A stretch of DNA of 64,000 nucleotides from Candidatus Latescibacterota bacterium (GTDB taxonomy: Bacteria; Latescibacterota; UBA2968; UBA8231), in the NCBI GenBank assembly GCA_965203175.1, contig OZ241867.1, positions 1,472,001 through 1,536,000 of the forward strand. The letters run 5' to 3'. The notes below the pieces were generated by a model that saw nothing but the letters and a program-made list of their open reading frames with translations, was not told the DNA's origin and did no database searches. This document shows, piece by piece, positions 1-26,023 of the stretch. Position 1 is the first letter of the stretch. Each line of letters starts with the position of its first letter. A program made the position numbers and the translations under genes.

Positions 1-1841
1 GGGGGTAGCAGGTTGCCCGCATCGTCCACGCCCTCCCAAGTAGCCGAAAACCGGCCACTGGCCGCTGTACTATGGGCCACCTCGCATCGCTTCACTCCCG
101 CCAGATCGTAGAGATTGATCGTCACGGGCACATCACCGCTGAGGTTTACCAGATCGTATTCAATTTGTAGCACATCGTTGACGCCATCGCCGTTGGGAGT
201 GAAAAGCCGCGGCGCGAGCCACAATGCCTTGACCGCTGGATTGGCCACCGTACTCAACCCGACACTTAGGGTATTGCTCTCGGCCAGATCATCGGCGTTC
301 CCCGCCGTGATGCGCTGGCGCACTTCATGGGGGAGTTGGCTGTCGAAGACCCGGCCCGAAAACACCGTGCCCACCTGAAAGACCTCGGCCTGAAATTCGA
401 CCTCGACCAACTCGCCCGTGCGGTTGAGATCAATTCGCGGTACTTGTACCACAAAGCTCTTCGCGTCTCTTTCCGCGATGGTAAAATCCTGTTCTTCGCC
501 GCCAATGTACACTGCGTCAATGCTCGTGACCTCTATGGGGGTGTCGATCTCAATGCTGTCGAAGCCGAGATCACTCTGCTCTAAGTTGGGCAGGATTTTG
601 TAGATGAATTGGACGACCTCGCCCACCTCGACTTGGTGCGGAACGATCTCGGCCAACACTTGGCTGGCCACCGGGGGTTGGGAGACATTAAACTGCAAGT
701 ACTCCATGCGTCCGGCCGCAAGGGCTCGCTCCGAGAGGAAGTCCGCCTTGAACTGCAAGTAGCGCCGAGGCCGTGAACCCACTAATTCGGAATGGCCCCG
801 ATCGAAATCGAGCGGCGGCGTCCAGAACTCCCAACTTTCGTTATCCGGACTAATCCCGGCTTTCTCGCCTTCCTCCAGTCTTTTATAGCGGTCTAGGGTG
901 AGCGGTTCGCCGCTGACTGCAAAGCGAGAGCGCTCGTCGCCTCTGAACGTGAAGCGCCAATAGAAATTGGGATCCGTGTCGTCGCCGCTGCGCATGCTCA
1001 GATTGACCGTTGCGCCCTGATCTCGGCTGCCCGACCAAGTCAACTCACCTAGGCTAGAAGCCATGCCCAAATCAATGACATTGGATATATAGCTGGCCTG
1101 CGAGGCAAAGCCATCCCCGAAGATCTCAAATTCGGCGATCTCCCAATTGCCAATGGGTGCCTTAAAAAGAATTTCGGCAATGGGCCGGTCGGGCAGTTCC
1201 AAATCGAGAAAGGGCTCCAAATTATTGGCAACCGAGAACACGACATCGTAATCGAGAAAAGCCCCGCGCCAATGGTATCGCCCTTCTCGAGTTCCCTTTT
1301 TGCGCGAATCGCCATCGTTAGTGCCTATCTCGAACACCTCGATGAAGCGCTGGTGAGCAAAGCGCTCCGTGGTGGAAATTTTGATGCGGCGGATGGGAAA
1401 CAGTCCTTTTAACTCAAACCAGATGCCCTTCTTGCACGGCGAGCAGTCGGCCGACTGGCTGCGGCCACTTCCCAAATAAGCAGTGGTCAGATCCCCGTCC
1501 ATCAAGAAGTCTAAGAGGGCTTCCGATTGCCAACCGTAGGAATTGTTCGAGCGTATGCCGCCGCCCCGTTCCCGAATCAGGGGCGTCAGATTGACGGCGG
1601 GGTCTAGGCGCTGAGGCTCGATAGAATGGGGCGCGACCTCCAAGAGGTCTATCCTACCGAGCTGTTTTTCGTCCACATCAGCCCAAGACAACTGGATAAA
1701 TTCAAAGTCCCCATCCACTTCCGGCGGCGGCAGCTCCTCGCCGCCGATGCGATACACGGTGAGCGCCTCGACCGCAGCTAGCCCATAGCAAAAGCTCCCT
1801 ACTAGAGCAGCCGACAAAAGTCGCAGCAAATTCCCTCTCAT
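1..1841 (-). CDS. Secreted discoidin/F5-8-like protein with C-terminal FTPNGDGVND + FlgD-Ig domain (3' end runs off the window)
   Basis: Not in the ORF track; translated by hand from ATG at 1841: signal peptide MRGNLLRLLSAALVGSFCYGLAAVEA, then LMDGDLTTAY, EIAEFEIFGDGF, PRRYLQF, LFTPNGDGVNDV, LYDLAG, WEGVDDAGNLLPP. Open to position 1; paralogue of 8730-10979 and 15721-18321. Confidence 0.85.
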   Translation of the reverse strand, partial: MRGNLLRLLSAALVGSFCYGLAAVEALTVYRIGGEELPPPEVDGDFEFIQLSWADVDEKQLGRIDLLEVAPHSIEPQRLDPAVNLTPLIRERGGGIRSNNSYGWQSEALLDFLMDGDLTTAYLGSGRSQSADCSPCKKGIWFELKGLFPIRRIKISTTERFAHQRFIEVFEIGTNDGDSRKKGTREGRYHWRGAFLDYDVVFSVANNLEPFLDLELPDRPIAEILFKAPIGNWEIAEFEIFGDGFASQASYISNVIDLGMASSLGELTWSGSRDQGATVNLSMRSGDDTDPNFYWRFTFRGDERSRFAVSGEPLTLDRYKRLEEGEKAGISPDNESWEFWTPPLDFDRGHSELVGSRPRRYLQFKADFLSERALAAGRMEYLQFNVSQPPVASQVLAEIVPHQVEVGEVVQFIYKILPNLEQSDLGFDSIEIDTPIEVTSIDAVYIGGEEQDFTIAERDAKSFVVQVPRIDLNRTGELVEVEFQAEVFQVGTVFSGRVFDSQLPHEVRQRITAGNADDLAESNTLSVGLSTVANPAVKALWLAPRLFTPNGDGVNDVLQIEYDLVNLSGDVPVTINLYDLAGVKRCEVAHSTAASGRFSATWEGVDDAGNLLP

Positions 1842-1881
1842 TATCTACTTCCTACACCGGTAGATGATCTAGATAATAAAT

Positions 1882-1917
1882 AAAAGAAGGGGAGGAATAG
1901 AATTCCCCCCCTTCTTT
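1882..1917 (-). terminator. Rho-independent terminator after the CBM9-like gene
   Basis: Inverted repeat AAAGAAGGGG-AGGAAT...ATTCC-CCCCTTCTTT; T-rich tail on the minus strand, ~30 nt after the stop at 1947. Confidence 0.75.
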
Positions 1918-1946
1918 ATGAGGCGCTTATGCGGCGCAAGAACCGC

Positions 1947-2867
1947 TTACTTGCCGAATGAAGCCTTGATCTGGCCCCAAGTGTTGTCTTCAACGGCTGT
2001 GGGCTCGATACCTTCAAAGGCGGACTCGTCAACGCCCAGCATCACCCAATCGGCAAAGAAATCAGCGTCGCCGAAGGACTCGACGTTGGGACCGATAGCC
2101 CAGCGCGAATGGCAGTTACAATCGTCGGATAGCTCGGCATCAGTATCGAAGACGTGCCCTGTAAGGCCGATGATCTCGTCCTGCTGGAAGTCGTGGAGGA
2201 CGCTTCCGGCGGGATCTTCCCAGTTGAAGTCGTCCCAATAGACGCTCCACCATTCGGCCCGTTGGCGCATCTCCTCAAAGGAATTGGGAGCCGTGCCGCT
2301 AAACCAATAGGCGTGATCGGAGTACGGCGGCGTGTCGTACCAGGTAGCCTGGGTCATCCAGAACCAGTTCCACTCTCCTTCACGGGCTTGGCCATTGTCG
2401 AACCAATAGTGGCTGATTTGGGCATGGCGACCGCGCTGGCGTGCCTTCTCCTCGTCGGTTTGGCCTTCCAGATCCCAGAAGGAGCCGCCCGAGTGATCGG
2501 CGTCCACAGTCGTTTCGATCGACTCGTTGCCCAACTGGTACTTGTCGTCGAAGCGCTCGTAGGCCCAGTAGATGCGGTTGGTTTCCTCGTTCCAAGTGGG
2601 AATCCAGCGGAAGGAAATCGAGGACACGTCCAAATCGCCGGTGTAGATCCACGCCCGAGTCGTGCTCTGTACGACGTTCTGCTCGGTGATCCAAAATTCC
2701 TCGGGAATGATATCCCACTCGCTCAGATCGGCATCTAAGACCGGCAAGTGAGTCTCAGGCCATTGCCACACCGCGCCGATAAAATCGGGCGGATCGTGGG
2801 CTTGTACCTGGGAGTTCAAGCCAAGCAAAAGCACGGGGGTAAATAAGACGGATAAAACTTTCTTCAA
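1947..2867 (-). CDS. Secreted CBM9/DOMON-like protein with C-terminal TWGxIK motif
   Basis: TTG start with AGGAGG SD; signal peptide; PVLDADLSEW and ESIETTVDAD motifs; Trp-rich; ends TAVEDNTWGQIKASFGK. Confidence 0.75.
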   Translation of the reverse strand: MKKVLSVLFTPVLLLGLNSQVQAHDPPDFIGAVWQWPETHLPVLDADLSEWDIIPEEFWITEQNVVQSTTRAWIYTGDLDVSSISFRWIPTWNEETNRIYWAYERFDDKYQLGNESIETTVDADHSGGSFWDLEGQTDEEKARQRGRHAQISHYWFDNGQAREGEWNWFWMTQATWYDTPPYSDHAYWFSGTAPNSFEEMRQRAEWWSVYWDDFNWEDPAGSVLHDFQQDEIIGLTGHVFDTDAELSDDCNCHSRWAIGPNVESFGDADFFADWVMLGVDESAFEGIEPTAVEDNTWGQIKASFGK

Positions 2868-2967
2868 AGCGACCCTCCTTCTTAGAGGTGTGAGGTTTTG
2901 CAGGTTTATGTACTTGATTTCTACGCTTCTGTAATTAATAAAAATAGACTATAAGGTCAAGCAAAAA

Positions 2968-5883
2968 TCACTTTAAGCCGGCGATAATCGACAGAAAACT
3001 CAAGCCCGAGGTCTCGATTTCTCGGCTCCGGTCAACTACCTCTATCGAGCGGCGGTCGAGGCGGATGCCCACTTGAGTAGTTAGCTCATACCCTAAGTAT
3101 TGGCTGATATTGGTGAGTTGAAGCGCCAAAACCGAGCCGCGAAAATCCCCGGTGAACAGCCCCTCCTCCAACTCATCTTCTCCTTCGAGGTCGAAGAAAG
3201 AGCGCTGCTCCAAGCCGAACTCGAACTCGGTGGTCTCAAGCACGGGGATGCTGCCGACAAAGAAAAAGAGGCCGTCCCAAGAGCGCCGCTCGTCGAATGC
3301 TCGGCTAAAGGGCACCTCGCGCAGAAATTCGCTCTTGAATTTGGGCCTGAGACTCAGCGACCGCCAAGAAAAGACATATTCTATCTTATTGATCAGCCCG
3401 ACAAAGCCCGAGGTCTGTCGCCCATTGCGCCCCTCGGGGCCCAGCGGGTCAAAGTCCACCACAGAATCGCCGGCCTCATCCGATGCGTCGCGCAAAAATT
3501 CGACCTCGCTGGCGCGCTGCCGCCAAGTCTCCCACTTAAAGCGATGCAGGGTCTGCCACAAATGCGGGCTAGAGTACTCCCAATCGACGTAAAAAGTGTT
3601 GATCCAAGTGTTCTCCGCAGCTAGGGGATCCAATACCGGCACATTGCTGCCAGCCGACTCGGACGCCGCGCCGAATGTGCTCCTAGGGATGATCCATTGC
3701 ACCAAGTGGTCGGCGATCGCGTCTTCGGCCTTCTTAACCATGTCGAAAATCCGCAGACGGCCCCACCGCGACCCGCTCTGCTCCAAGATGAACATTCCAT
3801 AGCTAGTCAGATTGCGGTGGTCGGTTGCCAAGCGGATTTGCCGCAATTGACCTACCCGTAGCTGGATACCCGGTGCCACCTCGATCCCGCCGAAGACGTT
3901 GTACCCCCAGTGATCTCGCTTGTAGGGATAGTCCGGCTCTTGATCGTTCTCAAAGCGCTCCACCCACCTATTGTTGTTGAGATCAATGCCGAAGAGAAAT
4001 TCCGGGCGATCCGCGGCATAGCGCAAAAAAGGCTCGTCGTAGTCGGGGAAAAAATTTACCCGATCGACGGTGCTATTCTGATTGAAATCCGATATGAAGT
4101 CGCGATTCTCGTCATAACCGGGGAAAACCGCCGGATCGGACACGCCGCGGACCTCGATTTCGCGGCGGCGCTCGGTGGGGACAAAGCTGCCCTCGCCCAC
4201 CCGCAGCCAGTCGGGCTGCCGGTCGTTGTCGTCGTTGTCATCTACAAATTCGTAGTGCAGGTTGACGGCCTCGGGGGCGTAGTCCGACACCCCGTCTCGA
4301 TTGACGGTCAGGACGCTGGTGCGGTACCCATTTTCCATACCAAATCCCTCGCCCCTAAAGCTCCAAGGCCCCTCCCGGAAGGCCAAATTGACCAACCATC
4401 CTACTTCATGGGAATCCCCCTCAATGCCGCTGATCGCACGATGGGAATCGCGACCTATGCTGGGGTATTTTCGGTACTGGGTATTGAGGTTTATTTCTCC
4501 GTAAAAATCGAAGCCGTGAAAATCCCGCACCTCGGCCGTCAGACCGACGATCTGGTTGGCCGTAGGTAGCCCATAGTCGAAGACGACCTCGCGCTGATTC
4601 AGTTGGTTCTTGATATTGCCATCGGCCCGCGCCACAGGTAAAAATTGCGGCACGTTAAATTTGTCCGTCTGCCTATTGGAACTGACCCCGACGCGGTAAT
4701 CGTTGGCTAGCACGAGGCGAAAGCGCACGTCTCGAATGGCGCTAATCGCGGCTTCGGCCTCAGATAGGGTGAGATCTAGGTGTTGCTGGAAGAGCGCACG
4801 CAAGGTTCCCTCTTCCCCCGTCGTCTCCCTAGGAGCCAAGTGATATTGCAAAATGATCTGGTCGGCACCATCGGCCGTTAGAAATCCCCGGTCTATCTTC
4901 CCTCCCGCAATGGTCGGTCTAAAGCCGATACTGCTGCTGAGGATGACGGTATCCCGCTCCACGTGAACTAGCCGGTCCCCAATCATCTCCTGACGGCTTA
5001 GGGTAGTGCGGATCTCGATCTCCTCGCTAACCAAGACGGCACCACCTTCGCCATCTTCTGGCGAGTCGTCCGAGAGCCGTACCAAGAGCAGATCAACTCG
5101 CTGAGCCAGTTGCCCCGCCGTCAGGGCACCCTTGAACACATTCCCTTGGAAGCTCTCGTTGCTGCCGGTGTTGTTGTGGCTGTTGACGAAGTTCATCCCC
5201 AACGTAAAAGAATCAGTCAAGTCGGCTTCAACTCGACCCGCGGTGAGGTTGGTAGCGTACTGGAAACGCGCGGTGCCCCCCGAAAGGAGCGGGAACGAAA
5301 TCCGCGAGAAAAGCCCCGTAGCGCGAAAGCGGTCTGCGGCAAAGTCAGCTACTACCCCGTTAAACCCCGCCTTGCGGAAAGTCATCGGCGTTAGGGTAGT
5401 CCATATCTCGTCTCCGACCATCACCGAATAGCGGTACTGGCCTTTGGAGTCCCCAGATATGACCAAGCGACTAAACCAGTTGTTGTACGGAGCACTTTTC
5501 CTGATGGAGGAACTCTCGGCGATCAGTGGTTTTGTCTGGCGCCAGTCGTACACCAGCCAGCCTCGCGTAATGAGGCGCCCGAAGGGATCGTAGAAGAGAT
5601 CCCCCTCTGACGCGGGGTTGATATAGCGCCTGTGGGCTTGGCGGGCGTAGTTGGTGTACTCCCACTGATTGCGGCCAAATTCGCCAAACAGGGGGGCCGG
5701 TATGTACCAGCGCTGCACAGTCGGATCCAGCGCCTCCATATAAGTAGTTACGCCGGGCACGTGGTAAATGACGCGGTCTCCCACCCGATCCCCTAGACGG
5801 CCCCCGTAGTCGACTTGCGCAGCGGCAACCCCCCACAGACCCAACCCGGCTAAGGCAGCCAATGTGATGTAACGCGCCTTCAT
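2968..5883 (-). CDS. Large exported hypothetical protein (971 aa), Asp-rich Ca-binding-like motifs, probable beta-barrel C-terminus
   Basis: Signal peptide; DDNDDNDRQPDW, DENRDFISDFNQN, GIDLNNN motifs; alternating strands ending SFLSIIAGLK; paralogue of the upstream gene. Confidence 0.8.
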   Translation of the reverse strand: MKARYITLAALAGLGLWGVAAAQVDYGGRLGDRVGDRVIYHVPGVTTYMEALDPTVQRWYIPAPLFGEFGRNQWEYTNYARQAHRRYINPASEGDLFYDPFGRLITRGWLVYDWRQTKPLIAESSSIRKSAPYNNWFSRLVISGDSKGQYRYSVMVGDEIWTTLTPMTFRKAGFNGVVADFAADRFRATGLFSRISFPLLSGGTARFQYATNLTAGRVEADLTDSFTLGMNFVNSHNNTGSNESFQGNVFKGALTAGQLAQRVDLLLVRLSDDSPEDGEGGAVLVSEEIEIRTTLSRQEMIGDRLVHVERDTVILSSSIGFRPTIAGGKIDRGFLTADGADQIILQYHLAPRETTGEEGTLRALFQQHLDLTLSEAEAAISAIRDVRFRLVLANDYRVGVSSNRQTDKFNVPQFLPVARADGNIKNQLNQREVVFDYGLPTANQIVGLTAEVRDFHGFDFYGEINLNTQYRKYPSIGRDSHRAISGIEGDSHEVGWLVNLAFREGPWSFRGEGFGMENGYRTSVLTVNRDGVSDYAPEAVNLHYEFVDDNDDNDRQPDWLRVGEGSFVPTERRREIEVRGVSDPAVFPGYDENRDFISDFNQNSTVDRVNFFPDYDEPFLRYAADRPEFLFGIDLNNNRWVERFENDQEPDYPYKRDHWGYNVFGGIEVAPGIQLRVGQLRQIRLATDHRNLTSYGMFILEQSGSRWGRLRIFDMVKKAEDAIADHLVQWIIPRSTFGAASESAGSNVPVLDPLAAENTWINTFYVDWEYSSPHLWQTLHRFKWETWRQRASEVEFLRDASDEAGDSVVDFDPLGPEGRNGRQTSGFVGLINKIEYVFSWRSLSLRPKFKSEFLREVPFSRAFDERRSWDGLFFFVGSIPVLETTEFEFGLEQRSFFDLEGEDELEEGLFTGDFRGSVLALQLTNISQYLGYELTTQVGIRLDRRSIEVVDRSREIETSGLSFLSIIAGLK

Positions 5884-5885
5884 CC

Positions 5886-8669
5886 TTACAGTCCGGCGTA
5901 GATGGTGATAAAGCTAGTGGTCTCGGTCCGGCCTTTGGTGAGCTTGTCGAAGACCCGAGGTTCTACCTCCCGCACCGTCTCGGTGAAGGTGCGGCCGATG
6001 CGTAGGCCAAGCTGCGTCGTCAGCTTGTAACCCAAATAGTTCGAGTTGTTGGTTAGCTGCACCGCAAAAACCGCAGAGCGCAAATCACCGGTCTCTTCGG
6101 CGATGCCTTGCTCGACCATATCCTCCTCCTGCTGTACCAGTTCGTTGAACTGGGCCAACTCCACCCCAAAGTCGACTACGCTGCTGTTGAGTAGGGGTAC
6201 TTGAGCCAGAAGCGAGGCAATCCCAGTCCATTGTTTTAAGTCTTCTTCGGCTAGCACAAAGGCGTCTTGACGGAAGTACTCACTTTTGAGCCTAGGCTGT
6301 AGGAGGAAGCGGCCTAGGTGCAGCTTGTACTCGAATTTGTTGATCAAGCCCAAGAGGGAGGACGAACCGGCCAGTGTCCGGCCGTCGATGTCGCGAGCCT
6401 CATCTTGGGCTTGGCTGTAGTGCTCGTATTTGAGTTTGTTGACGATCTCGAAATTGGCAATGGCGGTGTAGTCTACCCCCAGCCACGCGGTGTTGATCCA
6501 GGTATCGGGAAAGACCAGCATATCCGCCACCAGCGGCGGCGTGGGCGCGTCGAGGAAGGGTAGCGGTGCCCGCCGGTCATCGGGAATGGTGTCCGCGACC
6601 CGCTTGAGCATATCGAAGACCCGCACCCGCCCAAAACCGGGGTAATCCTTGTCGAGGGTGAACATGGCATACGCGGTTTGGTTGTCCCGATCGTCCGAGA
6701 GCATGCGCTCGTCGAGCCGCCCTACCAGTAAGCGCGCCTCGGGTAAGAGGTGGATGCCAAAAAAGACATTGTAACCGCGCCGGTCGGGCTTGTAGGGATA
6801 GTCGGCCAACTCGTCATCTTCAAAGCGGTCGATCCAGCCGTTGTTGTTGAGGTCAATGCCAAAGAGGAATTCGGGCCGATCAACGTGATAGCGCAAAAAC
6901 GGCTCTTCGTAGTCGGGAATGGAGTTGGGCACCGAGCGGTTGTCGTTTTGGTTGAAGTCCGAAATGAAGTCGAGGTTTTCGTCCCAGCCAGGAAACACCT
7001 CCCGGTCATTGGCCTGTGAGCCTACCCGAGCCCAGTCGGGCCGGCGGTCTTGGTCGTCGTTGTCGGCGACAAATTCGTAAACCGAGCGGATGGGATCGTC
7101 GTAGAACACGTCCCCCCCGGGCAGGGAGACAAAAGCCGAGGTCGAATAGTCGGCATCCACCGAATAGGCTTCGCCATAAGTAAAAAACGGGTAGGCCTCT
7201 TTGGCCAGATTGAAGATAGTGGCCTGACCACTCTCCGCAGAGATCTCGTGCCCTTCGTTGGCGTTGAATAGGGCGGCATTCGGGTACTGGAAATAGCGCA
7301 GGTTGTTGTTCCATTCGCCGTAGAAATCAAATCCCCACACGTTCTTGCCTTCGATAGTGAATCCGGCGATCATGTTGGCCGAAGGCAAGCCGTAGTTGAA
7401 AAGAACCCGCTGGGCGTTGGATATGTCTTTTATATTGCCGGAGGCCCGCCTTATGTTGATGAGAACCGGATCGGCTTCTTCAATGACTTGGTTGGTCAGC
7501 GGCGGCGGCGGCACCGGGCGCGTGCCCGTCTGCAGATTGGACCACATTTCGACCTTGAAATCATTGGCTAGCACATAGTCGAACTCCACTTCGACTATAG
7601 AAGTTAGATCCGGCCCCACATACGCCGGGTCCGTAAAGTCGTAATTGAGGATGATTCGCTCGGTGCCGTCGGCGGCCACAAAGCCAGTGCGCGGAAAGCC
7701 GCCGAATACGGTCGGCCACTCCGCTCCCTCGCGCACCACCTCGTCCAACGTCAAGACCGTCTCTAGACCCGTCTCGAAATCGCGACTCTTGATGCGTATA
7801 TCGTGGCTGAAAAGGGCTGCGCCGCCCTCTTCGTCCTCGGGGCTGTCGTCGCTGAGGACGATAGCTATGGCCGTAACCGGCGTACTGGTCTGGCCCGAGG
7901 TGAGGTTGCCCGCGAGGAGATTGCCTTCAAACATGTCCAAGGTGGTATTGGCGTTGTGGGCGTTGACCAAGGTCCCGCCCACCGTAATAAAGTCGCCTAC
8001 CTGAGCGAGAGCCCGGCCACCGAGCAGAGAGGTCGAATTGGACTGCCGCCTAGGATTGATGGTCACGCCCACGGCCGGATCATTGATCCGCGAGGCCAGT
8101 ACGGTGGCGGCGTATTTGTCCGAGGCGAAGTCGATCTGGACTCCGTTGAAATTCGGCTTGGAAAAAGTCATCGGCGTGAGGGTGGTGCGAATCGCGTTGC
8201 CCACGGTAATGGCGTAGGAGTACTGGCCCCTAGAGTCGCCGCTTACGGTTACCGAACTGAAGAACTGCTCGAATTGGCGGCCCTTGAAAATACCACTGCC
8301 CAGCTCTTGGGGCTGATCTTGGCGCCAGTCGTACACCAGCCAGCCGCGGTTGATATAGTTGCCGAAAAAATCGTAGAAGTAGTCGCCCTCTAAGTTGGTG
8401 TTGATATAGCGCTGGTACTGGTCGCGGGCGTAATTGGAGTACTCCCATTGGCGCCACCTGAACTCGTAGTAGAGTTCTTGGGGCACGTACCATCTCTGTA
8501 CGGCGGGATCTAGGGCTCCAAAGAGTACACCTGGGCCCCGGGGCTCAAAACTGACTTCGCCGCCGCGCTGAATCCCTAGGCGGGTGCCGTAGTTTTGGGC
8601 GTGGAGCACGGTTTGGAACGCGACCAACAGTGCCAGCCCAATCGTTAAATTCACTCCGCGGACATTCAA
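5886..8669 (-). CDS. Large exported hypothetical protein (~927 aa), paralogue of 2968-5883
   Basis: Likely TTG start at 8669 after GGAGG (ORF open to 8684); shares ALDPxVQRWY, QWEYxNYAR, RGWLVYDWRQ, TTLTPMTF and RPEFLFGIDLNNN blocks; ends SFITIYAGL; 2-nt gap to the next gene. Confidence 0.8.
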   Translation of the reverse strand: MNVRGVNLTIGLALLVAFQTVLHAQNYGTRLGIQRGGEVSFEPRGPGVLFGALDPAVQRWYVPQELYYEFRWRQWEYSNYARDQYQRYINTNLEGDYFYDFFGNYINRGWLVYDWRQDQPQELGSGIFKGRQFEQFFSSVTVSGDSRGQYSYAITVGNAIRTTLTPMTFSKPNFNGVQIDFASDKYAATVLASRINDPAVGVTINPRRQSNSTSLLGGRALAQVGDFITVGGTLVNAHNANTTLDMFEGNLLAGNLTSGQTSTPVTAIAIVLSDDSPEDEEGGAALFSHDIRIKSRDFETGLETVLTLDEVVREGAEWPTVFGGFPRTGFVAADGTERIILNYDFTDPAYVGPDLTSIVEVEFDYVLANDFKVEMWSNLQTGTRPVPPPPLTNQVIEEADPVLINIRRASGNIKDISNAQRVLFNYGLPSANMIAGFTIEGKNVWGFDFYGEWNNNLRYFQYPNAALFNANEGHEISAESGQATIFNLAKEAYPFFTYGEAYSVDADYSTSAFVSLPGGDVFYDDPIRSVYEFVADNDDQDRRPDWARVGSQANDREVFPGWDENLDFISDFNQNDNRSVPNSIPDYEEPFLRYHVDRPEFLFGIDLNNNGWIDRFEDDELADYPYKPDRRGYNVFFGIHLLPEARLLVGRLDERMLSDDRDNQTAYAMFTLDKDYPGFGRVRVFDMLKRVADTIPDDRRAPLPFLDAPTPPLVADMLVFPDTWINTAWLGVDYTAIANFEIVNKLKYEHYSQAQDEARDIDGRTLAGSSSLLGLINKFEYKLHLGRFLLQPRLKSEYFRQDAFVLAEEDLKQWTGIASLLAQVPLLNSSVVDFGVELAQFNELVQQEEDMVEQGIAEETGDLRSAVFAVQLTNNSNYLGYKLTTQLGLRIGRTFTETVREVEPRVFDKLTKGRTETTSFITIYAGL

Positions 8670-8729
8670 TGCCCATCCTCCCAATTCTGCATGGTAAAAT
8701 TCATCGCGAGGAAATCTCCTCGCCTAGCA

Positions 8730-10979: not shown

Positions 10980-11090
10980 GAATTGTAGCATGGTTGGCAT
11001 ATCTGTCTGATTCGACTGCTCTGGGCTAAGGCAAATAACTGTATGAAATACGAGAGGATACAGCAACCAAAATCCGGCAACGCATAGCAG

Positions 11091-12437
11091 CTACGGTTGG
11101 TTCGCTTCAATCCGGATCTCGCCCGTAAACCCACCGGCGATCAAACGCTCCACTAGGGCCTTAGCTTCGGTGCTCGGCAGGTTTCTATTGGCCCGAATCG
11201 CCAGCCGACCACCTACTCTTTCGAGCGTTGCCAAGCCCGCTACACTCTGCAATTTCTCGTTAAATTGGATGAATAAATGGCCTTCAATAGTCCTGAGTTC
11301 GCGCAGCCCAATCAGATTCGTCAGGGCACTGTTGCCGAAGATGGATAGCACCCCCCTTATTCGGCTTAGGCGGTGTAGCCCTTCCAAACTGAGCAGTGCG
11401 CCATTATCGACGACCAGCAAATCCCCGCCGACGTAGTCTAGGCGGCGCAGACCTGCCAAATTTTGCAGCGCACTATTGTCGATGATCAAGAGGAGCCCCT
11501 CAATGCGGGCCAAGCGGGCCAAGCCCTCGAGATCGGGCAGGACGCTATTGGCCTGAATCAGCAAATCCCCGCCGATGCGCTGGCACCCGGCCAAGCCCGC
11601 CAACGATACCAGCGCATCGTTTTGCTCGACTCTCAGACTGCCCCCGATCTGACTCAGGTTGCCCAAGCCCGCCAAGCGCTCCAGACGGGCGTTGCCGATG
11701 ACCAATACATTCCCAGCGACGCGCTCGAGTTGTTCTAGGCCTGCCAGCTCGACCAAGGCTCTATTTCTCTTGATCCGCAAAAAGTCGCCCACATCCTCCA
11801 GCCGCCGCAGTCCTCCCAACGCTTGCAACGCCCGATTGCGCTCTATGGCCAGCCCGCCCTTTAGGCGCTTGATTCCCTCCAACCCCACCAGACTTTCTAG
11901 CGATCCATTGCCGACGACGAGAACCTGCCCTTCTATCGCCTCCAATCGCTCCAGCCCATCAATGTGGGCGAGACGGCGATTGAATTGAATCCTGAGCGAC
12001 TCGCCCACGCGACTAATCCGACGCAATCCCTTCAGGCCGACCAAGGCATCGTTGCGCTCGACTATTAAGCTACCCCCCAATTCCTCCAGAGACCACAATC
12101 CCTCCAAATCCACGAGTTTGGGATTGCGCCGGATTCGCAGACTGCCCCCAATCCGCTTTAGGTGGTGCAGGCCCTCCAAACTTTGCAACGAATCACAATG
12201 TTCAATGCTCAGATCGCCTCCTATATATTCGAGCTGCTCCAACCCACGCAGCGTTTTCAGTTGGTCGCTCTGCACGAGCAAATGCCCTTCGACAGACCGG
12301 CCCGTCAAAGCGCGTAGGTCGGCTGCCGAATCGATGACAAACCCTTCTGCTGGTTTGTTCGACTCAGCCGCTTGTACCGGGCCAACACTCCAACATAACA
12401 TCCCCATTAGCAGTGCAACCAAGGCTCTATGATCCAT
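11091..12437 (-). CDS. Secreted receptor L-domain / leucine-rich repeat protein
   Basis: Signal peptide MDHRALVALLMGMLCWSVGPVQA, then about 15 tandem 25-aa repeats LxGLxxLxxIGGxLxIxxNxxLxxL. Confidence 0.9.
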   Translation of the reverse strand: MDHRALVALLMGMLCWSVGPVQAAESNKPAEGFVIDSAADLRALTGRSVEGHLLVQSDQLKTLRGLEQLEYIGGDLSIEHCDSLQSLEGLHHLKRIGGSLRIRRNPKLVDLEGLWSLEELGGSLIVERNDALVGLKGLRRISRVGESLRIQFNRRLAHIDGLERLEAIEGQVLVVGNGSLESLVGLEGIKRLKGGLAIERNRALQALGGLRRLEDVGDFLRIKRNRALVELAGLEQLERVAGNVLVIGNARLERLAGLGNLSQIGGSLRVEQNDALVSLAGLAGCQRIGGDLLIQANSVLPDLEGLARLARIEGLLLIIDNSALQNLAGLRRLDYVGGDLLVVDNGALLSLEGLHRLSRIRGVLSIFGNSALTNLIGLRELRTIEGHLFIQFNEKLQSVAGLATLERVGGRLAIRANRNLPSTEAKALVERLIAGGFTGEIRIEANQP

Positions 12438-12486
12438 TGTGGATTCTCGGGCTAAAATTCCCTTGGTCAACGCGAAGGACCCAAAG

Positions 12487-14106
12487 TCAGCGAGTAGGTT
12501 GGACTACCCGTATAATCTGATTGGCGTCAACAGCGGCCAACGTCTGCACTTGGCCGTCGGGCCAGCGAATCGCGATATCCGCCTTCGTCGCCCGGCCGAG
12601 GCCAAAGTGAAGGCGGGGATCGTGACTGGATAGATAGCTCCCCCCGGACTGGCGCTCCCGAACCTGACGCACACCACCAGCGGTAACAGTGACGTGGGTA
12701 CCCAGTGCATCCCGCTGACTAGTACCGACCAAGAGGAGTTCGATCCAGTGCTGGCGATTGCCCCCGTCGTTGCGCAATAGACGAGGCCGCCCGGCCACGG
12801 TGGTCGCCAGCAAATCCAGATCGCCGTCGTTGTCCCAATCGGCTGACGCCGCGCCGCGAACCACGCTCTCAACGACAAAGTCGGCACCCAATTGGTCGGA
12901 GACTTCTTCAAAGTGGGCACCACCTTGGTTGCGCAGCATAAGGTCGGGCTGGGCGTAGAAAAGGTCGCCGTCGAGTTGCTCAATATTATCCACCACGTGC
13001 CCATTGCCGACATACAAATCGAGGTCGCCGTCGTTGTCGTAGTCCATAAATTTGGTCCCGAACCCCAAGGGCAGATAGCTGGGTGCCCCCAAGCCGAAGT
13101 GGGCGGTAAAATCGGCAAAGCGTCCCCGGCCATCGTTCCAGTAGAGGGTGTTGGTCTCGCGCGAGTAATTGGTCACGAAAAGATCGGCGTACCCGTCGTT
13201 GTCGAAATCGCCGAAATCTACTCCCATACCGGCTTCGGCGTGCCCATCTTCGTTGTATTGCACTCCAGCTCTCAGGCCGATCTCGACAAAGCGCGTTCCT
13301 TGGTTTTCATAGAGAAAATTCGGCGTGCCGTCGTTGGCCACGTAAATATCCGTATCGCCGTCCAAATCGCTGTCTGCAAAGGCCACGCCCAGTCCCCGGC
13401 CCACCGCGCGGATACCCAGCCTCTTGGTCACATCGACAAAGCGTCTCCCCTCGTTGCGATAAAGCACATCCCCAATGGGTGCGTAGGTACTCGGCTCGCA
13501 GTAAAAGCGAAGCGCCCCCCGCTGGCATTGGATATTGCCCTGCAAGCTGAAATGCACATAATTGGCCACAAAAAGGTCCAAATCCCCATCGTTGTCGAAA
13601 TCCAAAAATCCGGTGCTGGTGCCCCAGCGCCCGTCGCCCACACCAGCTCTTTGGGTGACGTCCGCAAAGCGCCCCTCACCGTCATTGCTCAACAGCACAT
13701 TGGGACCGAAGTTGGTCGCGTAGAGATCTTGATCCCCATCGTTGTCGAAATCGCCCGCCGCACATCCCATGCCGTAGCCCCGGTCGCCAGCTCCAGACGC
13801 AACAGTGAGATCGGCGAAAGTCCCATCGCCAGCGTTGCGATAGAGATGGTTAATGGGCGGGATCGGGGGAAGGGTCCCCGAGAGATGGGCACCATTGATC
13901 AGGTAGAGGTCCTGCCAGCCGTCCCCATCGGCATCAAAAAACGCCGCGCCTGCGCCAAAGGTCTCAACATAGTAGTATTCGCCTTGAGCGCCGTTGTAGT
14001 GCTGGAAGTCAATCCCGGCTTCTTGGGAGACTTCCCGGTAGCGCACCTGGGCCTCTGCCGCAGCGACAAAAGCGCACAAGATGGACAATACTGCGTATCT
14101 TCTCAT
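12487..14106 (-). CDS. CRTAC1-family protein (FG-GAP-like repeats + ASPIC/UnbV domain)
   Basis: Repeated DxDNDGDxDLxVxN motifs; C-terminal GGSYLSSHDPRLHFGLG...IRWPDG; signal peptide. Confidence 0.93.
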   Translation of the reverse strand: MRRYAVLSILCAFVAAAEAQVRYREVSQEAGIDFQHYNGAQGEYYYVETFGAGAAFFDADGDGWQDLYLINGAHLSGTLPPIPPINHLYRNAGDGTFADLTVASGAGDRGYGMGCAAGDFDNDGDQDLYATNFGPNVLLSNDGEGRFADVTQRAGVGDGRWGTSTGFLDFDNDGDLDLFVANYVHFSLQGNIQCQRGALRFYCEPSTYAPIGDVLYRNEGRRFVDVTKRLGIRAVGRGLGVAFADSDLDGDTDIYVANDGTPNFLYENQGTRFVEIGLRAGVQYNEDGHAEAGMGVDFGDFDNDGYADLFVTNYSRETNTLYWNDGRGRFADFTAHFGLGAPSYLPLGFGTKFMDYDNDGDLDLYVGNGHVVDNIEQLDGDLFYAQPDLMLRNQGGAHFEEVSDQLGADFVVESVVRGAASADWDNDGDLDLLATTVAGRPRLLRNDGGNRQHWIELLLVGTSQRDALGTHVTVTAGGVRQVRERQSGGSYLSSHDPRLHFGLGRATKADIAIRWPDGQVQTLAAVDANQIIRVVQPTR

Positions 14107-14197
14107 ATACTAACTGCTTGGCTACTTTGACCGGCAATCTAACCGCATCGACGAACCGGGACCCCTCGTGCAAATACACCTAAAAAACGGGCGCTCA

Positions 14198-15724
14198 ATG
14201 GCCCGCGTTCACCTACCCTGCAAAAAGGTCTTGGCTTGGCTTGGAGCCGCCTTTTGTCTCCTCATCTGCGCCTGTGGACCCAAGGAACGCGATCCTTTGG
14301 TCCGTGCCGGGATGTACGCCTTTGCTCAGGAGCGCTACAGCGAAGCTATCGTCGCCTTTCACAAGGCATTGGCCTCACGCGCCGACGATTGCGAAGTCCA
14401 CCACTATCTCGCTCGCTCTTACCTAGCACTGGGCAAATTTCCCCAAGCCCTGCGCGCGATCGAACACGCGATTGAACTAGCCCCCCAAAAGGACCAGACG
14501 CGCTCCGAGTTATACGAAGTCCTCGGCATCATCCACACGGCTCGCTACACCTCCAGAGCGTATAGCCAAAACCAGCACCGTGATGTCGAAGCAGCGCGAG
14601 CCGCCTTTGAGCAAGCGACCGCGCTCGATCCCCGCCGAGCAACAGCGTACTACAACTTGGGCTTACTGTACGGCTATCGCAAAGAAGTAGATCAGGCTCA
14701 AGCAGCGTACACGGCGGCCTTGGAGGCAGATTCAACCTTGGCACCGGCCTACAAGAAATTGGGCAAAATCCAGCGGGAAAAGGGGTTCCCACCCGAGGCA
14801 GCTACGGCCTTCAAAAAAGCGGTACGCTTCGACCCGCAGGACGCCGAAGCGCACTTTCTCTTGGGATTGGCCCAGCGCGATATGGGCGATAATGAGGCGG
14901 CTTTGCAGGCGCTACTCAAGGCCACCGAACTCAACCCCGACTCGCCCAAGCTCCGCCTCAACCTTGGCAATGTCTATCTCCGGTTGGGCCGCCGCGAAGA
15001 GGGCAAGCGGGAAATGGCCCGTTCCGAAAGCCTGCGCCAACAGCATCGGGGCTTGCACTCCGAAATCTCCCCGCCGGCGCACAGATCGCTCTCCATCGGC
15101 TCGGCGCGGGATCACTACAATATGGGCTTGAAGCACCAAATGGTCGGCGAAACTGACCAAGCTTTATTAGAGTTTCGTCGCGCGGTCGAAATCAAACCCG
15201 ATCACAAAGACGCCCACATCGGCCTCGGCCTCCTCCTCGCCGAGCAAGGCCGGCAAAGACAGGCAGCCCGGTATTTCCAGCGGGCCATCGAGCTGGATCC
15301 AGAAAATCCCGTTCTGTACGTACATCTAGGCAATGCTCACTATCAGTCGGAATCACTCGCAAGGGCGGCCCAAACCTTCGCCAAGGCGGCCCAACTCGAC
15401 ACTTCCCTCGTCGAGCCTCACTACATGCTTGGTTTGATCGCCGCCCAAGAACGCCGGTTCAAAGTAGCCACGCGACTTTTTGCCCAAGTCACGGCCCTCG
15501 CCCCCCAGTACGCCAAAGCCCACTTCAACCTAGGAGTAGCCCATGCCCAACTCGGAGACTTTGCCGCGGCCCGGACCGCCTACCAACGCTTTGTCGAATT
15601 GGAGCCCGAAGATGGGCGCGGACACCTCTACTTGGGCGATGCCTGCGAAGCGCTCGGCCTGCTCGAAGAGAGTCGCAAGCATCGAGCGCGTGGTCAGCAG
15701 CTTTTGGAACGAGACGAAAACTAA
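14198..15724 (+). CDS. Tetratricopeptide-repeat protein, probable lipoprotein
   Basis: Many TPR units (AYYNLG, AHFLLG, AHFNLG); hydrophobic N-terminus with lipobox-like ICAC. Start uncertain (14168 or 14198). Confidence 0.9.
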   Translation: MARVHLPCKKVLAWLGAAFCLLICACGPKERDPLVRAGMYAFAQERYSEAIVAFHKALASRADDCEVHHYLARSYLALGKFPQALRAIEHAIELAPQKDQTRSELYEVLGIIHTARYTSRAYSQNQHRDVEAARAAFEQATALDPRRATAYYNLGLLYGYRKEVDQAQAAYTAALEADSTLAPAYKKLGKIQREKGFPPEAATAFKKAVRFDPQDAEAHFLLGLAQRDMGDNEAALQALLKATELNPDSPKLRLNLGNVYLRLGRREEGKREMARSESLRQQHRGLHSEISPPAHRSLSIGSARDHYNMGLKHQMVGETDQALLEFRRAVEIKPDHKDAHIGLGLLLAEQGRQRQAARYFQRAIELDPENPVLYVHLGNAHYQSESLARAAQTFAKAAQLDTSLVEPHYMLGLIAAQERRFKVATRLFAQVTALAPQYAKAHFNLGVAHAQLGDFAAARTAYQRFVELEPEDGRGHLYLGDACEALGLLEESRKHRARGQQLLERDEN

Positions 15725-18321
15725 TAGGCCACGGCTAGCGTGCGCACCAATTCCTCCTGACCTAGCTCAGCGCCTGACGTATTGGCATCCAGCCGCAAAT
15801 GCATTGCGTACACCCCCGGCGGCACGAGCGACCCTTTTTCGTTCCTTCCGTCCCATCCCATTTCGTAAATTCCCGAGGCAAAATCTCGCTGCTCGGTTAG
15901 CTGGCGCACCAAGCGTCCCTGCAAATCGTAGATAGTGGCCTCAACCCGCTGACTGCCCTCCACTAAAACCACTGAAAAGCGCAACGTCACCTCGTCGTTG
16001 ACCCCATCCCCATTTGGCGTCAATACCGCTGGCTCGACCACTAAATCCGCAAAAATCGAGCGACTCTGCGGCTGCCCCACTACCAATAGCCGATTGCTGC
16101 CGACCGTCTCCACAGCTTCCCCTGGATCGACGCGCTGCCAGATCCCCTCCCCATCTTCTCCTTGACGCAGTTGCACCTTTAGCGGGCCACCGCGAGAAAA
16201 CAGCCGCCCCGCAAAGTCTATCCGCAACGCCGTCACTTCGCTTCCCGGCTCTAGCGGGGCAAAGGACAAATGCACCCGGTCCGCCGCTGCGGCCAGCACC
16301 TCCGCCTCCAAGGGTGAAAAATCCTCCCCATCCGCACTCCCCAACAACCCGTCATACGTTAGTTCCATGCCCGCTGGTGCTTCCAACAACAACTCGTTGA
16401 ATCCCCCATCCCCTGCGCCGAACTCGGGTCGCACATACACCGAAAAAGGTACCTCAGCCGCCAGCCGATCCACCTGACTGGGCACTACCTCTCCCAAGAG
16501 GCGCCGCGCCACCGGCTCGGCAAAATTCAGCCGCAGCCCTGACAAACTCGCCGCCACATCCGGTGCGGCCGAGCGCAACGTCGCCCGCACCTTGAGAAAC
16601 TCCCGTGGCGACGGCGAAGTAATAGGGCTGCCTCCCGGCTCGTCGTAGGGCACACTCCACGGCTCCCAGTCTGCGCCGGCGACTTCCTCGGACACAGTCT
16701 CACCGCGAAAAATGCTCAATAGTTTGTTGTAGGCCGCTTCGGAGATTTCGGTTCCATCCTTTTTGAAATAGTGCACGATCTCGCCCAAGGTGTCGCCGGT
16801 GCGGGTCTGAAGCAGCACCTCGGTGCCAGGCGGCGCGTGCGCATCCCACTCGAGGGAAACCAAGTTGCGGCTGCCCCCCAACCGGATCAGGTCCGACTCG
16901 AGTTGCACCTCTGGCAAGAACCCCTCGCCAAAAAGTTGTATCTCGCTCATCCTGATAGCGCTCCGGTTGGGAAGGCGCACATGTTCTACTTCAAACACCA
17001 AGCGAAAAAAGCGACCCTTTACCGGATCGAAGTCATTGCCATCGACGGTGAGGGCCCCCGCGACGCTCCGCTTTACTTGCTCGCGCCGCACGGCAGTGAT
17101 CCACTTGAGGCCCCCGTCCACCTCCCGCGAACCGTCCGAAAATTCCAATCGATGGTTCCCAGGGGCGTACTCCGTGAAACTCATCCTGTGGCTATGGATC
17201 CAGAAGAACGAGCCCAAATCAATGAACAACTCGTCCTCTAACCGATTCTCGATGCTGAATAGGTCCAGCCCCTCTACGCTGGTTATATCGCCGTCGATCA
17301 TCAATTGGGGATTGATGCTGCCGGGCACTGTAATAGAAATGGAGCCATTGCGCCGCAAGGCCCCACTGGCCAAATCGTCGCCTTGGGTCCAGACTTCGAG
17401 TTCGGCCAACCGGGGCCGCTCGCGCCGAAAGTAGCGTATCGTTCCCCGCCGCTGAGGATCGAGAGCCTCGTACACTTCCTGTTTGACCACGATCTCCCGC
17501 CCGTCGGCTTGGCGCTTGCTATATTCGATGAGCCCTCTATCCTCGGAGGGTAGCTGATCGTACTCCTCTGGGGATACTTCTCGGCCACGGCCAAAATCGC
17601 TGGCCTGCACAACCACTTGGACAAAGCGTCCCACGGCCCGACGCTGATCGAGCCCTACTGGGTCGAGTTCGACTTCAAAGGTTCGCTGGCTTTTGTTGGG
17701 CTTTAGTGTCTGGAGCACCGGAAAGAACTCGAGGCTCGACCCGCCGATTGCCTGTACTGGCTTCTGTCCGTCCGATACCAGTACATCGAATAAAAGAAAG
17801 GGATCGCCCATTCCCTCCTCGACGAATTTTAGCGCGATCTTGTTGATGAAGACAACGCGGCCCAAATCCACGGTAAACCACCACTGAGACGATAGATCTA
17901 CATTTTCAGCGATCGGATCGGGTTCCCAATACGTGGTCAAGTCGCCATCTAGGGCGGCGACGACTCCTTCGCGGTTGGAACCACCTTGAATGGCGTCGAG
18001 CAGGACGATGTCTTCAGGCTCTTTCTTTTTTTTAGCGATATAATCTGGAGGGTTATAGCGCAGAAAATCGACGATATCTAGGGCGGCGTTGGTGTTTTTG
18101 TGGACGCGATTGGGCCGCACCTCTCCGAGTGGGGAAATCTGGATCGTACCGGGCGCAAATTCCCAGTGATCCCAGTGATCGGGTCCGACGACGACTTGAT
18201 TCGCACTGCGGTCGATCCGATGGCCTGCTTGAGCCAGCAAATCCCCGACCCCATTCGACCAAAGCAAAAGCACGGCGCTGACCACTATAAGGCGCGAGAA
18301 GTGTTTCGTGCGGATATTCAT
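15721..18321 (-). CDS. Secreted protein with two discoidin-like domains and C-terminal LTPNGDGVND + FlgD-Ig domain
   Basis: ALDGDLTTYW...VDLGR and MIDGDITS...IDLGS repeats; VLTPNGDGVNDE...IYDLQGRLVR...WDGRNEKGSLVPPGVY...LAVAY. Confidence 0.88.
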   Translation of the reverse strand: MNIRTKHFSRLIVVSAVLLLWSNGVGDLLAQAGHRIDRSANQVVVGPDHWDHWEFAPGTIQISPLGEVRPNRVHKNTNAALDIVDFLRYNPPDYIAKKKKEPEDIVLLDAIQGGSNREGVVAALDGDLTTYWEPDPIAENVDLSSQWWFTVDLGRVVFINKIALKFVEEGMGDPFLLFDVLVSDGQKPVQAIGGSSLEFFPVLQTLKPNKSQRTFEVELDPVGLDQRRAVGRFVQVVVQASDFGRGREVSPEEYDQLPSEDRGLIEYSKRQADGREIVVKQEVYEALDPQRRGTIRYFRRERPRLAELEVWTQGDDLASGALRRNGSISITVPGSINPQLMIDGDITSVEGLDLFSIENRLEDELFIDLGSFFWIHSHRMSFTEYAPGNHRLEFSDGSREVDGGLKWITAVRREQVKRSVAGALTVDGNDFDPVKGRFFRLVFEVEHVRLPNRSAIRMSEIQLFGEGFLPEVQLESDLIRLGGSRNLVSLEWDAHAPPGTEVLLQTRTGDTLGEIVHYFKKDGTEISEAAYNKLLSIFRGETVSEEVAGADWEPWSVPYDEPGGSPITSPSPREFLKVRATLRSAAPDVAASLSGLRLNFAEPVARRLLGEVVPSQVDRLAAEVPFSVYVRPEFGAGDGGFNELLLEAPAGMELTYDGLLGSADGEDFSPLEAEVLAAAADRVHLSFAPLEPGSEVTALRIDFAGRLFSRGGPLKVQLRQGEDGEGIWQRVDPGEAVETVGSNRLLVVGQPQSRSIFADLVVEPAVLTPNGDGVNDEVTLRFSVVLVEGSQRVEATIYDLQGRLVRQLTEQRDFASGIYEMGWDGRNEKGSLVPPGVYAMHLRLDANTSGAELGQEELVRTLAVAY

Positions 18322-18463
18322 CGGCGGCACCTTTCAAAACCGTGAAAAATCCGAGTTTTAAGGGTACATGCGGAGGAATCTAACGCCCCTTTGGTCGAGA
18401 AACAACATTTGTCTATCCTATGAGGATGTATAGAGGACTTGACAACTTCGAGAAAGGAACGCG

Positions 18464-23271: not shown

Positions 23272-23341
23272 GGTCAGTCTTCTGTTTGGGTTGAGGTGCG
23301 TCCTGCTCAACATAAACACCGCTTCGCCTCGCGCCAAGTTG
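23221..23341. repeat. Direct repeat A copy 1 (promoter + 5' end of the SGNH gene)
   Basis: 121-bp ungapped match to 25903-26023; 19 mismatches by manual count (~84% identity). Confidence 0.9.
23309..23337 (-). promoter_or_regulatory. Putative sigma70 promoter TTGGCG-N17-TATGTT
   Basis: Both hexamers and the 17-nt spacing are conserved in the second copy at 25991-26019. Confidence 0.55.
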
Positions 23342-23421
23342 CCATCCCAATGGTCTGGTATTCGACGCGCAGACCCTTGATGTCAGCGATTTTTGTGCAA
23401 TCTACTCTTGGAGAACTTCAG

Positions 23422-24189: not shown

Positions 24190-24194
24190 CGTCG

Positions 24195-24953: not shown

Positions 24954-24974
24954 CGGCGTTCTTCGGGATAAGGA

Positions 24975-25859: not shown

Positions 25860-25863
25860 AGCG

Positions 25864-25953
25864 CTATTCCTTACTACCGCCGCTGACCAGTCGGATCAAT
25901 GTGCGGGCGGTAAAGTTATTGCCAATGAAAAGAGCGCGGGTGATATTGGCCAT
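25864..25953 (-). pseudogene. Truncated remnant of an SGNH hydrolase paralogue (29 aa)
   Basis: MANITRALFIGNNFTARTLIRLVSGGSKE* versus intact MANITRVLFIGNSFTARNDLPGLLAQLVHAGGKGE. Confidence 0.8.
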
Positions 25954-26023
25954 AGTCGGTCCTCAATGTGGGTTGCGGTGCATCTTGCTCAACATATACA
26001 CCGCTTTGCCCCGCGCCAAGTTG
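25903..26023. repeat. Direct repeat A copy 2
   Basis: ~84% identical to 23221-23341. Confidence 0.9.

Follow-up and report, generated by a model that had tools for sequence, protein, structure and literature searches.

A cassette of predicted giant outer-membrane barrels and discoidin-family proteins, repeated at forty loci of a Latescibacterota genome

Genes at the locus

A stretch of 64,000 nucleotides from a Candidatus Latescibacterota bacterium (contig OZ241867.1 of assembly GCA_965203175.1, forward-strand positions 1,472,001 to 1,536,000; hereafter the window) was analysed. Latescibacterota are uncultured bacteria that are widespread and common in sponges and sediments. As shown by the listing and translation of open reading frames (ORFs), nine ORFs (g1 to g9) occupy positions 3-18330 of the window, and eight of the nine lie on the minus strand (Table 1). 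They form a gene cassette with three main components: two giant paralogous proteins that are predicted to be outer-membrane beta-barrels (g3 and g4), three discoidin-family proteins sharing a C-terminal domain (CTD) of the CHU_C/FlgD_ig type (g1, g5, and g9), and an exported protein with a CBM9 fold (g2). Cassettes of this kind recur throughout the genome, which also encodes core components of a type IX secretion system (T9SS).

All nine N-termini are hydrophobic and resemble signal peptides when judged by eye, and no enzyme family was matched by any of the nine genes in Pfam and NCBIfam scans. These results bear out an earlier note on this DNA, made from the sequence alone, which had described nine genes with export signals, eight of them on one strand, and none a recognisable enzyme. 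Its L-domain, CRTAC1-type, and TPR genes were likewise recovered as g6, g7, and g8 in the family scans. The genes are closely spaced, with gaps of 45 bp from g5 to g4, 2 bp from g4 to g3, and about 100 bp each from g3 to g2 and from g2 to g1. The true start of g5 is probably downstream of its first TTG codon. The g8 product is a probable lipoprotein, as its N-terminus, read by eye, contains a lipobox-like sequence with a Cys residue (...LLICAC).

Table 1. Genes and features of the cassette, in window coordinates
Feature	Position	Strand	Description
g1	3..1841	-	B-type discoidin-family protein; ORF cut by the window start, full ORF 79 bases longer; full CTD 34.4 bits
g2	1947..2867	-	Exported protein with CBM9 fold, 306 aa
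g2 C-terminal tail TAVEDNTWGQIKASFGK	1950..2000	-	[ST]WGxIK tag
g2 His24 codon	2796..2798	-	First residue past the predicted signal-peptidase site (VQA|H)
g3	2968..5883	-	Second giant barrel paralogue (predicted), 971 aa; starts 2 bp past the g4 end
g4	5886..8684	-	Giant predicted outer-membrane beta-barrel, 932 aa, unnamed family
g5	8730..11066	-	Discoidin-family protein of type A; 778 aa when counted from the first TTG
g5 CTD, last 101 aa	8733..9035	-	FTPNGDGVNE motif
g6	11091..12470	-	Receptor L-domain repeat protein, 459 aa; Recep_L_domain 90.2 bits (Pfam)
g7	12487..14106	-	FG-GAP/ASPIC (CRTAC1-type) repeats, 539 aa; FG-GAP_3 158.5 bits, UnbV_ASPIC 82.3 bits
g8	14168..15724	+	TPR protein, 518 aa; sole gene on the plus strand
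g9	15721..18330	-	C-type discoidin-family protein, 869 aa; F5/8 type C domain at residues 123-194 and C-terminal CHU_C/FlgD_ig
g9 CTD, last 101 aa	15724..16026	-	LTPNGDGVND motif

The giant barrel pair

Neither g3 nor g4 matched any family at E ≤ 0.01 in Pfam or NCBIfam, and this includes PF11751, TIGR03519, Plug, and TonB_dep_Rec. The two proteins are 40% identical over 974 aa in BLASTP, in agreement with the earlier description of two paralogous proteins of about 950 residues (971 and 932 aa). The closest relatives of g3 belong to four sister cassettes, with 55-58% identity.

The structure of g4 was predicted with AlphaFold2 from an alignment of g4, g3, 31 paralogues of the same genome, and 31 database homologues. 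The model has a predicted local distance difference test score (pLDDT) of 82.2 and a predicted TM-score (pTM) of 0.78, and is nearly all beta, with approximately 24-26 long strands. The first 100 residues, although conserved, were modelled with low confidence. An extra beta domain is inserted at about residues 270-430. Residues 540-634 form an acidic loop without secondary structure, in which many Asp and Asn residues are invariant; this loop may bind calcium. When the model was compared with the PDB by Foldseek, only large outer-membrane barrels (SlpA, LptD, MtrB, SprA, and FimD) were found, with low TM-scores. A VIA-align comparison with 48,161 chains also returned outer-membrane barrels only, including BamA/TamA, with Z of 9-13.7 and identities of 5-11%. 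A barrel profile found no relative among the PDB sequences.

A word-indexed search gave 806 homologues of g4. All are annotated as 'hypothetical' and lack Pfam domains, and the named ones come from metagenome-assembled genomes (MAGs) labelled as Latescibacterota or Gemmatimonadota. An exhaustive profile search over 1.84 billion entries gave 1291, 958, and 479 cluster representatives at E ≤ 1e-3, 1e-10, and 1e-30, respectively. I regard g3 and g4 as predicted outer-membrane barrels of an unnamed family. The structure prediction and both structural comparisons point to barrels rather than soluble enzymes, as the earlier note had proposed, and its expectation that the system is no full-length match to a characterised one agrees with the Pfam, NCBIfam, and PDB profile searches. 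A complex prediction of g4 (residues 34-932) with the g5 CTD, run without controls, scored 0.00 in both runs and counts neither for nor against binding.

Discoidin-family proteins and their C-terminal domain

The earlier note had described three discoidin-like paralogues sharing the same CTD. The paralogy and the CTD hold. In BLASTP, g1 and g5 are 26% identical over 655 aa (E 2e-44), and g9 is 28-29% identical to each of them over about 400 aa, with E values across the three pairs from 1e-30 to 1e-44. The discoidin-like character is recognised by sequence only in g9, which scored 31.3 bits for F5_F8_type_C (PF00754; cut-off 28.2). Neither g1 nor g5 matched PF00754, and their paralogy to g9 is mainly in the C-terminal half. 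For the g5 body, an Atlas lead points to a cluster with F5_F8_type_C in 70% of its members.

As for the CTD, CHU_C (PF13585; Pfam gathering score 27) is passed by g5 (33.1 bits), g9 (30.6 bits), and full g1; the score of g1 is 20.6 bits in the copy cut by the window and 34.4 bits in the full gene. Of the families of the type-A T9SS CTD, FlgD_ig (cut-off also 27) is exceeded by g5 (29.4 bits) and g9 (33.5 bits), and Por_Secre_tail gave no match at E ≤ 0.01. In addition, g9 matches the PorU CTD. Thus, of the families that the earlier note had named for a profile check, CHU_C, FlgD_ig, and, in g9, F5_F8_type_C were matched, while PorP/SprF was not.

Hidden Markov models (HMMs) of the CTD matched 246 ORFs of the genome, and in 237 of them the match ends within 40 aa of the stop codon. 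The [TS]PN.D motif is present in 161 CTD ORFs, every one of which has a discoidin-family body. Of these, 119 lie no more than 12 kb from a barrel gene, versus 16 of the 85 without the motif; the part of the genome this close to a barrel gene amounts to 18%. Since the motif-bearing CTD occurs on one body family only, the link to the barrels is to the protein family, and not necessarily to the tag.

The three proteins differ in their positions relative to the barrel genes. For eight of the 11 best g5 paralogues, a barrel gene was flagged 0-64 bp downstream, and by its coordinates a ninth, next to the barrel gene at genome position 5693995, is placed likewise. The relatives of g1 and g9 sit elsewhere in cassettes, and the closest g9 paralogues do not adjoin a barrel gene. 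The differing positions thus define three position-specific subtypes: A (g5), B (g1), and C (g9).

The CBM9-like protein and its WGxIK tail

The g2 protein had been called CBM9-like, with a TWGQIK sequence, in the earlier note. The tail and, by structure prediction, the fold agree with this, but the Pfam threshold was not reached: g2 is below the threshold of CBM9_1 (PF06452), and only one of its 36 homologues matched, at E 0.0012. In the AlphaFold2 model of g2 (pLDDT 83.4), the best Foldseek neighbour is the CBM9 module 1i82_A (E 1.8e-7, TMt 0.70), followed by 7nwn, and the Atlas places g2 among clusters with CBM9_1. Judging from these results, g2 is CBM9-like by fold and not by the Pfam threshold. 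A heme-binding DOMON subunit was considered and rejected; NxrC, EbdC, and the CDH cytochrome domain are weaker fold neighbours (E 4e-3 to 1e-2).

His24 of g2, the predicted N-terminal residue of the mature protein, is invariant in 36 of 36 aligned homologues and is accompanied by conserved His125 (in a DADHSGG stretch) and His225. By eye, the N-terminal His is present in about 25 of 30 g2 paralogues of the same genome. From the N-terminal His alone, it could be that His24 marks a metal (copper) site of the histidine-brace type.

The tail of g2 follows the pattern TAVE-x2-[ST]WG-x-IK, and W297, G298, and K301 are invariant in the 36 homologues. In this genome, W[GA]x[IVLM]K is found within the last 22 residues of 106 of 35,586 ORFs, versus 6 at a control position. 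Among the 106 tail-bearing ORFs, 43 are CBM9-like. Nineteen other carriers were scanned and proved to be PD40 propellers (14), Cache-domain proteins (2), and one each of a polysaccharide deacetylase, an FGE-sulfatase-domain protein, and a HmuY-like protein. Since the tail occurs on at least six unrelated families of exported proteins, it is a modular tag and is not specific to the cassette. No transmembrane helix follows it. No mention of the WGxIK tail was found in the literature; the words of the tag returned unrelated papers only.

Type IX secretion genes in the genome

Are the CTD proteins cargo of T9SS? The earlier note had envisaged an assembly different from T9SS. This does not agree with a genome profile search, in which SprA_N scored 82 bits in a 2133-aa ORF and PorU scored 632.5 bits against a cut-off of 420. 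A PorV-like gene directly follows PorU (147.5 bits, below the cut-off of 250). In its last 80 positions, the PorU model is matched by at least 50 further ORFs. Since SprA, PorU, and a PorV-like protein are encoded, the CTD proteins are most simply T9SS cargo. No PorP/SprF was found in the genome, and the best score (21.3 bits) fell on the PorV-like ORF; the control genomes gave no PF11751 match either, so this absence is weak.

Separately, proteins with an FGE-sulfatase domain give matches to the GldK model below its cut-off, e.g., L145 (C1:2435972-2436928), and by coordinates about nine of 14 are no further than 10 kb from a barrel gene. The one FGE-sulfatase-domain protein among the scanned tail carriers bears a WGxIK-type tail.

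Repetition of the cassette within the genome

A tblastn search with the nine proteins, combined with HMM searches over all ORFs, revealed 62 intact barrel ORFs in 40 loci, together with 169 discoidin-family genes and 48 CBM9-like ORFs. None of the barrel and discoidin-family genes has a functional name. The window cassette is therefore one of 40 diverged loci and not the single nine-gene module of the earlier note; it also extends beyond the window start. The gene order recurs at the 40 loci here and at 79 related loci, which is more than chance would give. Among 63 barrel intervals, 43 have a CTD gene on the same strand ending directly upstream, 15 lie behind another barrel, and five have neither. 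Plug-bearing TonB-dependent receptors gave 32 matches, 31 of them above the cut-off, and all lie elsewhere than the barrel pair.

Divergent sets of two or three barrels, with about 25% identity to g4, were also seen at C1:2792466-2802397, 6156224-6164888, and 6511325-6519563. These are three of the four divergent barrel sets, and pairs of ExbD genes lie 4-10 kb from each of the three. The canonical cassettes, the window cassette among them, have no such pairs nearby.

Conservation in relatives and environmental data

A pattern scan of 185,579 species genomes gave at least 640 relatives among 680 candidate stretches. Gene order was counted in the best 79 loci, many of which come from the same or closely related genomes and are not independent. 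All of the 79 are from Latescibacterota MAGs or Gemmatimonadota-labelled MAGs. They contain 141 barrel ORFs, of which 74 have a CTD ORF just upstream, 52 lie behind another barrel, 12 have another arrangement, and three are too near the locus end. Of the 79 loci, 59 include a CBM9-like ORF.

In a sample of 151 genomes of the phylum, which are related and thus not independent samples, the barrel family was found in 95. It was found in every one of the 63 genomes that belong to the family of the window, and in 0 of 30, 0 of 19, and 0 of 2 genomes of three other families. The CBM9-like family is present in 91 genomes, all of them barrel-positive. CHU_C-like CTDs (E ≤ 1e-7) were found in 28 of 37 barrel-positive genomes versus 0 of 24 barrel-negative ones. 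In contrast, SprA is present in 143 of the 151 genomes, including those of the barrel-less families. These distributions indicate that T9SS is phylum-wide, while the triad of barrel, lectin, and CBM9-like protein is a lineage-restricted add-on. The co-occurrence of the families that the earlier note had anticipated is thus seen at three levels: in this genome, in related loci, and in the phylum sample.

Near-identical DNA was found in runs labelled as sponge metagenomes (studies P3, P4, and P7), with shares of 0.44-0.91. In four metatranscriptome-labelled runs, represented by contigs only, there are pieces that are 90-99% alike and come from relatives; the contigs of run X20 cover positions 2224-5732 (g2 and g3) and 5855-10813 (g4 and g5). 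Such libraries may contain DNA, their depth cannot rank genes, and uncovered stretches mean nothing. The bin containing part of g2 (window 1843-2456) has the top contig word depth in three of four RNA-labelled runs, a value subject to the same limit on ranking.

No description of the cassette was found in the literature, nor any paper that combines Latescibacterota with type IX secretion. The main text of PMC12993501 does not contain 'secretion system', 'type IX', 'discoidin', 'barrel', or 'FlgD'.

Neighbouring genes

In the 18 kb scanned before the window, the minus-strand gene run goes on for about 6 kb past the window start (L140, 11749-17893). The next gene after g1 encodes a SurA-like double peptidyl-prolyl isomerase (PPIase) of 556 aa. 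The run also includes a second L-domain protein, a 568-aa protein without a family, and a further FG-GAP/ASPIC protein. Hence, the statement that there is no recognisable enzyme is true of the nine window genes, and the gene run as a whole also includes a folding catalyst, the SurA-like PPIase. Then come opposite-strand genes whose products are a membrane protein with DUF6785/DUF6784, an MFS/spermine-synthase-like protein, two additional proteins of the FG-GAP/ASPIC type, and a TPR protein. Beyond g9, at the other end, there is an M28 peptidase gene on the opposite strand and then unrelated metabolism genes.

Two further features of the window were recorded. At positions 22918-27000, three genes for PhyH-type dioxygenases are clustered with enolase-superfamily genes and with genes for a cyclase, a class-V aminotransferase, a GNAT protein, and a UPF0093/CopD-like membrane protein. 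At positions 48001-50000, the G+C content is 0.50 versus about 0.60 on both sides.

Proposed function and alternatives

What might such cassettes do? The analysis has established the genes with their families and order, a barrel-type fold by prediction, a T9SS core in the genome, the number of copies, and which families occur together. From these I infer a surface capture complex: a dedicated set of one or two giant barrels would carry T9SS-exported lectin-like subunits of three subtypes, a CBM9-fold protein would be an accessory, and the chaperone would be private to the cassette. This reading is put forward tentatively, with a probability somewhat short of even. All cassette products would be exported by Sec. 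The g4 and g3 barrels would be inserted into the outer membrane with the aid of the SurA-like chaperone encoded past the window start. The discoidin-family proteins A, B, and C may cross the outer membrane through T9SS by using their CHU_C/FlgD_ig-type CTD, and may then be held on the barrel or barrels of their own cassette. The resulting surface complex would capture a ligand specific to the cassette, most likely a glycan. The g2 protein might serve as an accessory binding subunit sorted by its own [ST]WGxIK tail. The barrel would serve as the platform and, probably, also let the captured ligand through.

Several points weigh against this reading. First, GldM was not found in the genome and GldK was matched below its cut-off only; the control genomes gave no GldM match either, so the absence of GldM is weak. 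Second, the NCBIfam type-B model TIGR04131 has a cut-off of 35, and the scores of g5 (24.1 bits) and g9 (21.6 bits) are below it. Third, family scans of the window cassette revealed no glycoside hydrolase, lyase, or consistent inner-membrane importer, and no ExbD gene was found near it. With about 31 conventional TonB-dependent receptors carrying a Plug domain elsewhere in the genome, there is no need for a further importer. Fourth, the adjacent CTD does not co-diverge with the barrel once the body is controlled for, as described below. Finally, I infer every protein-protein contact in the scheme, as well as T9SS dependence, surface location, ligand, and any transport, and for the contacts this counts against the complex itself.

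A bolder version of the import idea is that the giant barrels are a third, independently evolved outer-membrane machine for capture and import, beside the TonB-dependent receptors and SusCD. There would be forty substrate-specific channels, whose surface receptors are delivered by T9SS and not lipidated, and the motor-linked divergent triple-barrel sets would be an energised form. This version is unlikely.

The closest rival of the surface capture complex is a pure shuttle or anchor: the barrels would stand in for PorP/SprF, bind the CHU_C-like CTD as it leaves SprA, and tether the cargo without any transport. It comes near to the idea of the earlier note. The order of a type-B substrate gene followed by a PorP/SprF shuttle gene is reported in PMC12618676, and the CTD-then-barrel order at 43 of the 63 barrel intervals mirrors it, as the earlier note had suggested. 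The lack of a PorP/SprF match in the genome, a weak absence given the unmatched controls, and the restriction of CHU_C-like CTDs to barrel-positive genomes (28/37 vs 0/24) also fit this idea. However, the barrels have no sequence kinship to PorP/SprF and are about three times longer, and there are one or two barrels for three CTD proteins, of which the A type alone is adjacent. A mirror-tree analysis of 42 cassettes is relevant here. The correlations with barrel distance are 0.65 for the adjacent body, 0.68 for the non-adjacent body, 0.30 for the adjacent CTD, and 0.56 for the non-adjacent CTD. The body values are high irrespective of adjacency, as shared duplication history alone would give, and the partial r of the adjacent CTD with the body controlled is -0.09. 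This result weakens the idea of a CTD-specific anchor but does not settle it. In addition, as the CTD is carried by one body family in this genome, its link to the barrel may reflect the body and not the tag. A pure shuttle or anchor is thus somewhat unlikely.

Could the same complex serve for adhesion or host recognition rather than nutrient capture and uptake? It would then mediate variable surface adhesion, e.g., to glycans of hosts or particles in sponge-type habitats. In favour of this are the forty diversified copies, with their lectin-like, L-domain, and FG-GAP/ASPIC repeat proteins of a 'eukaryote-like' kind, the near-identical DNA in sponge-metagenome-labelled runs (shares 0.44-0.91), and the lack of degradative enzymes in the window cassette. 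But why an adhesin would need a barrel of at least 24 strands as its anchor is left unexplained, and the family is also found in relatives that are not labelled as sponge-derived, such as the lake MAG locus L074. I consider a purely adhesive role quite improbable.

That the barrels are dedicated export pores or ushers for the neighbouring discoidin-family proteins, independent of T9SS, is very improbable: the tight coupling of barrel and cargo genes (45-bp and 2-bp gaps), the ushers and two-partner or TamA-type transporters among the structural neighbours, and the status of GldM (not detected) and GldK (below cut-off only) agree with it, but resemblances of this kind are generic among large barrels, the genome encodes SprA, PorU, and a PorV-like protein, the CTDs match T9SS families including the PorU CTD, and only one of the three cargo types adjoins a barrel gene.

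If the cassettes do act in surface capture, it would be chiefly through them that these bacteria meet their substrates or hosts. To my knowledge, the T9SS logic of a cargo protein plus its cognate barrel has so far been studied only in Bacteroidota. The surface capture complex would extend this logic to a barrel family and a phylum that are both new to it.

Comparison with known systems

For g2, the known counterpart is the CBM9 of Thermotoga maritima Xyn10A (PDB 1i82), whose fold is the same as that of the g2 model. While 1i82 is a module of an enzyme, g2 is exported as a protein of its own and is about 110 aa longer, and it has an invariant His at the predicted mature N-terminus and the [ST]WGxIK tail.

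For the cassette as a whole, the first counterpart is the type-B CTD cargo with PorP/SprF, exemplified by SprB-SprF of Flavobacterium johnsoniae. In both systems, the cargo has a Sec signal (a putative one here) and a C-terminal domain matching CHU_C (PF13585), an outer-membrane barrel gene (a predicted one here) lies directly downstream of the cargo gene, and the T9SS core (here SprA, PorU, and PorV-like) is encoded together with many cargo-barrel pairs per genome. PorP/SprF proteins are about 300-400 aa in length. In contrast, the cassette barrel is about 930 aa, belongs to an unnamed family, and has no sequence kinship to them. The CTD of the cassette is a hybrid, which also matches FlgD_ig and is below the TIGR04131 cut-off. 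Moreover, one or two barrels go with three subtypes of cargo, and the host is outside Bacteroidota. The copy number also differs, with 40 loci in this genome against the 12 type-B substrates of F. johnsoniae given in PMC12618676.

The second counterpart is the SusC/SusD-type polysaccharide utilisation loci of Bacteroidota, which likewise occur as dozens of diversified loci, each combining a large outer-membrane barrel with surface proteins of a carbohydrate-binding type. However, the cassette barrels lack Plug and TonB_dep_Rec, and there is no SusD. T9SS-type CTDs take the place of lipid anchors on the putative surface proteins of the cassette. The window cassette has no glycoside hydrolases or regulators, and Plug-bearing receptors are encoded elsewhere. 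As none of the PorP/SprF, Plug, and TonB_dep_Rec models is matched by the barrels, the system belongs to neither PorP/SprF nor SusC/SusD. By analogy, the cassette may work like type-B CTD cargo with PorP/SprF, while in genomic logic it resembles the SusC/SusD loci.

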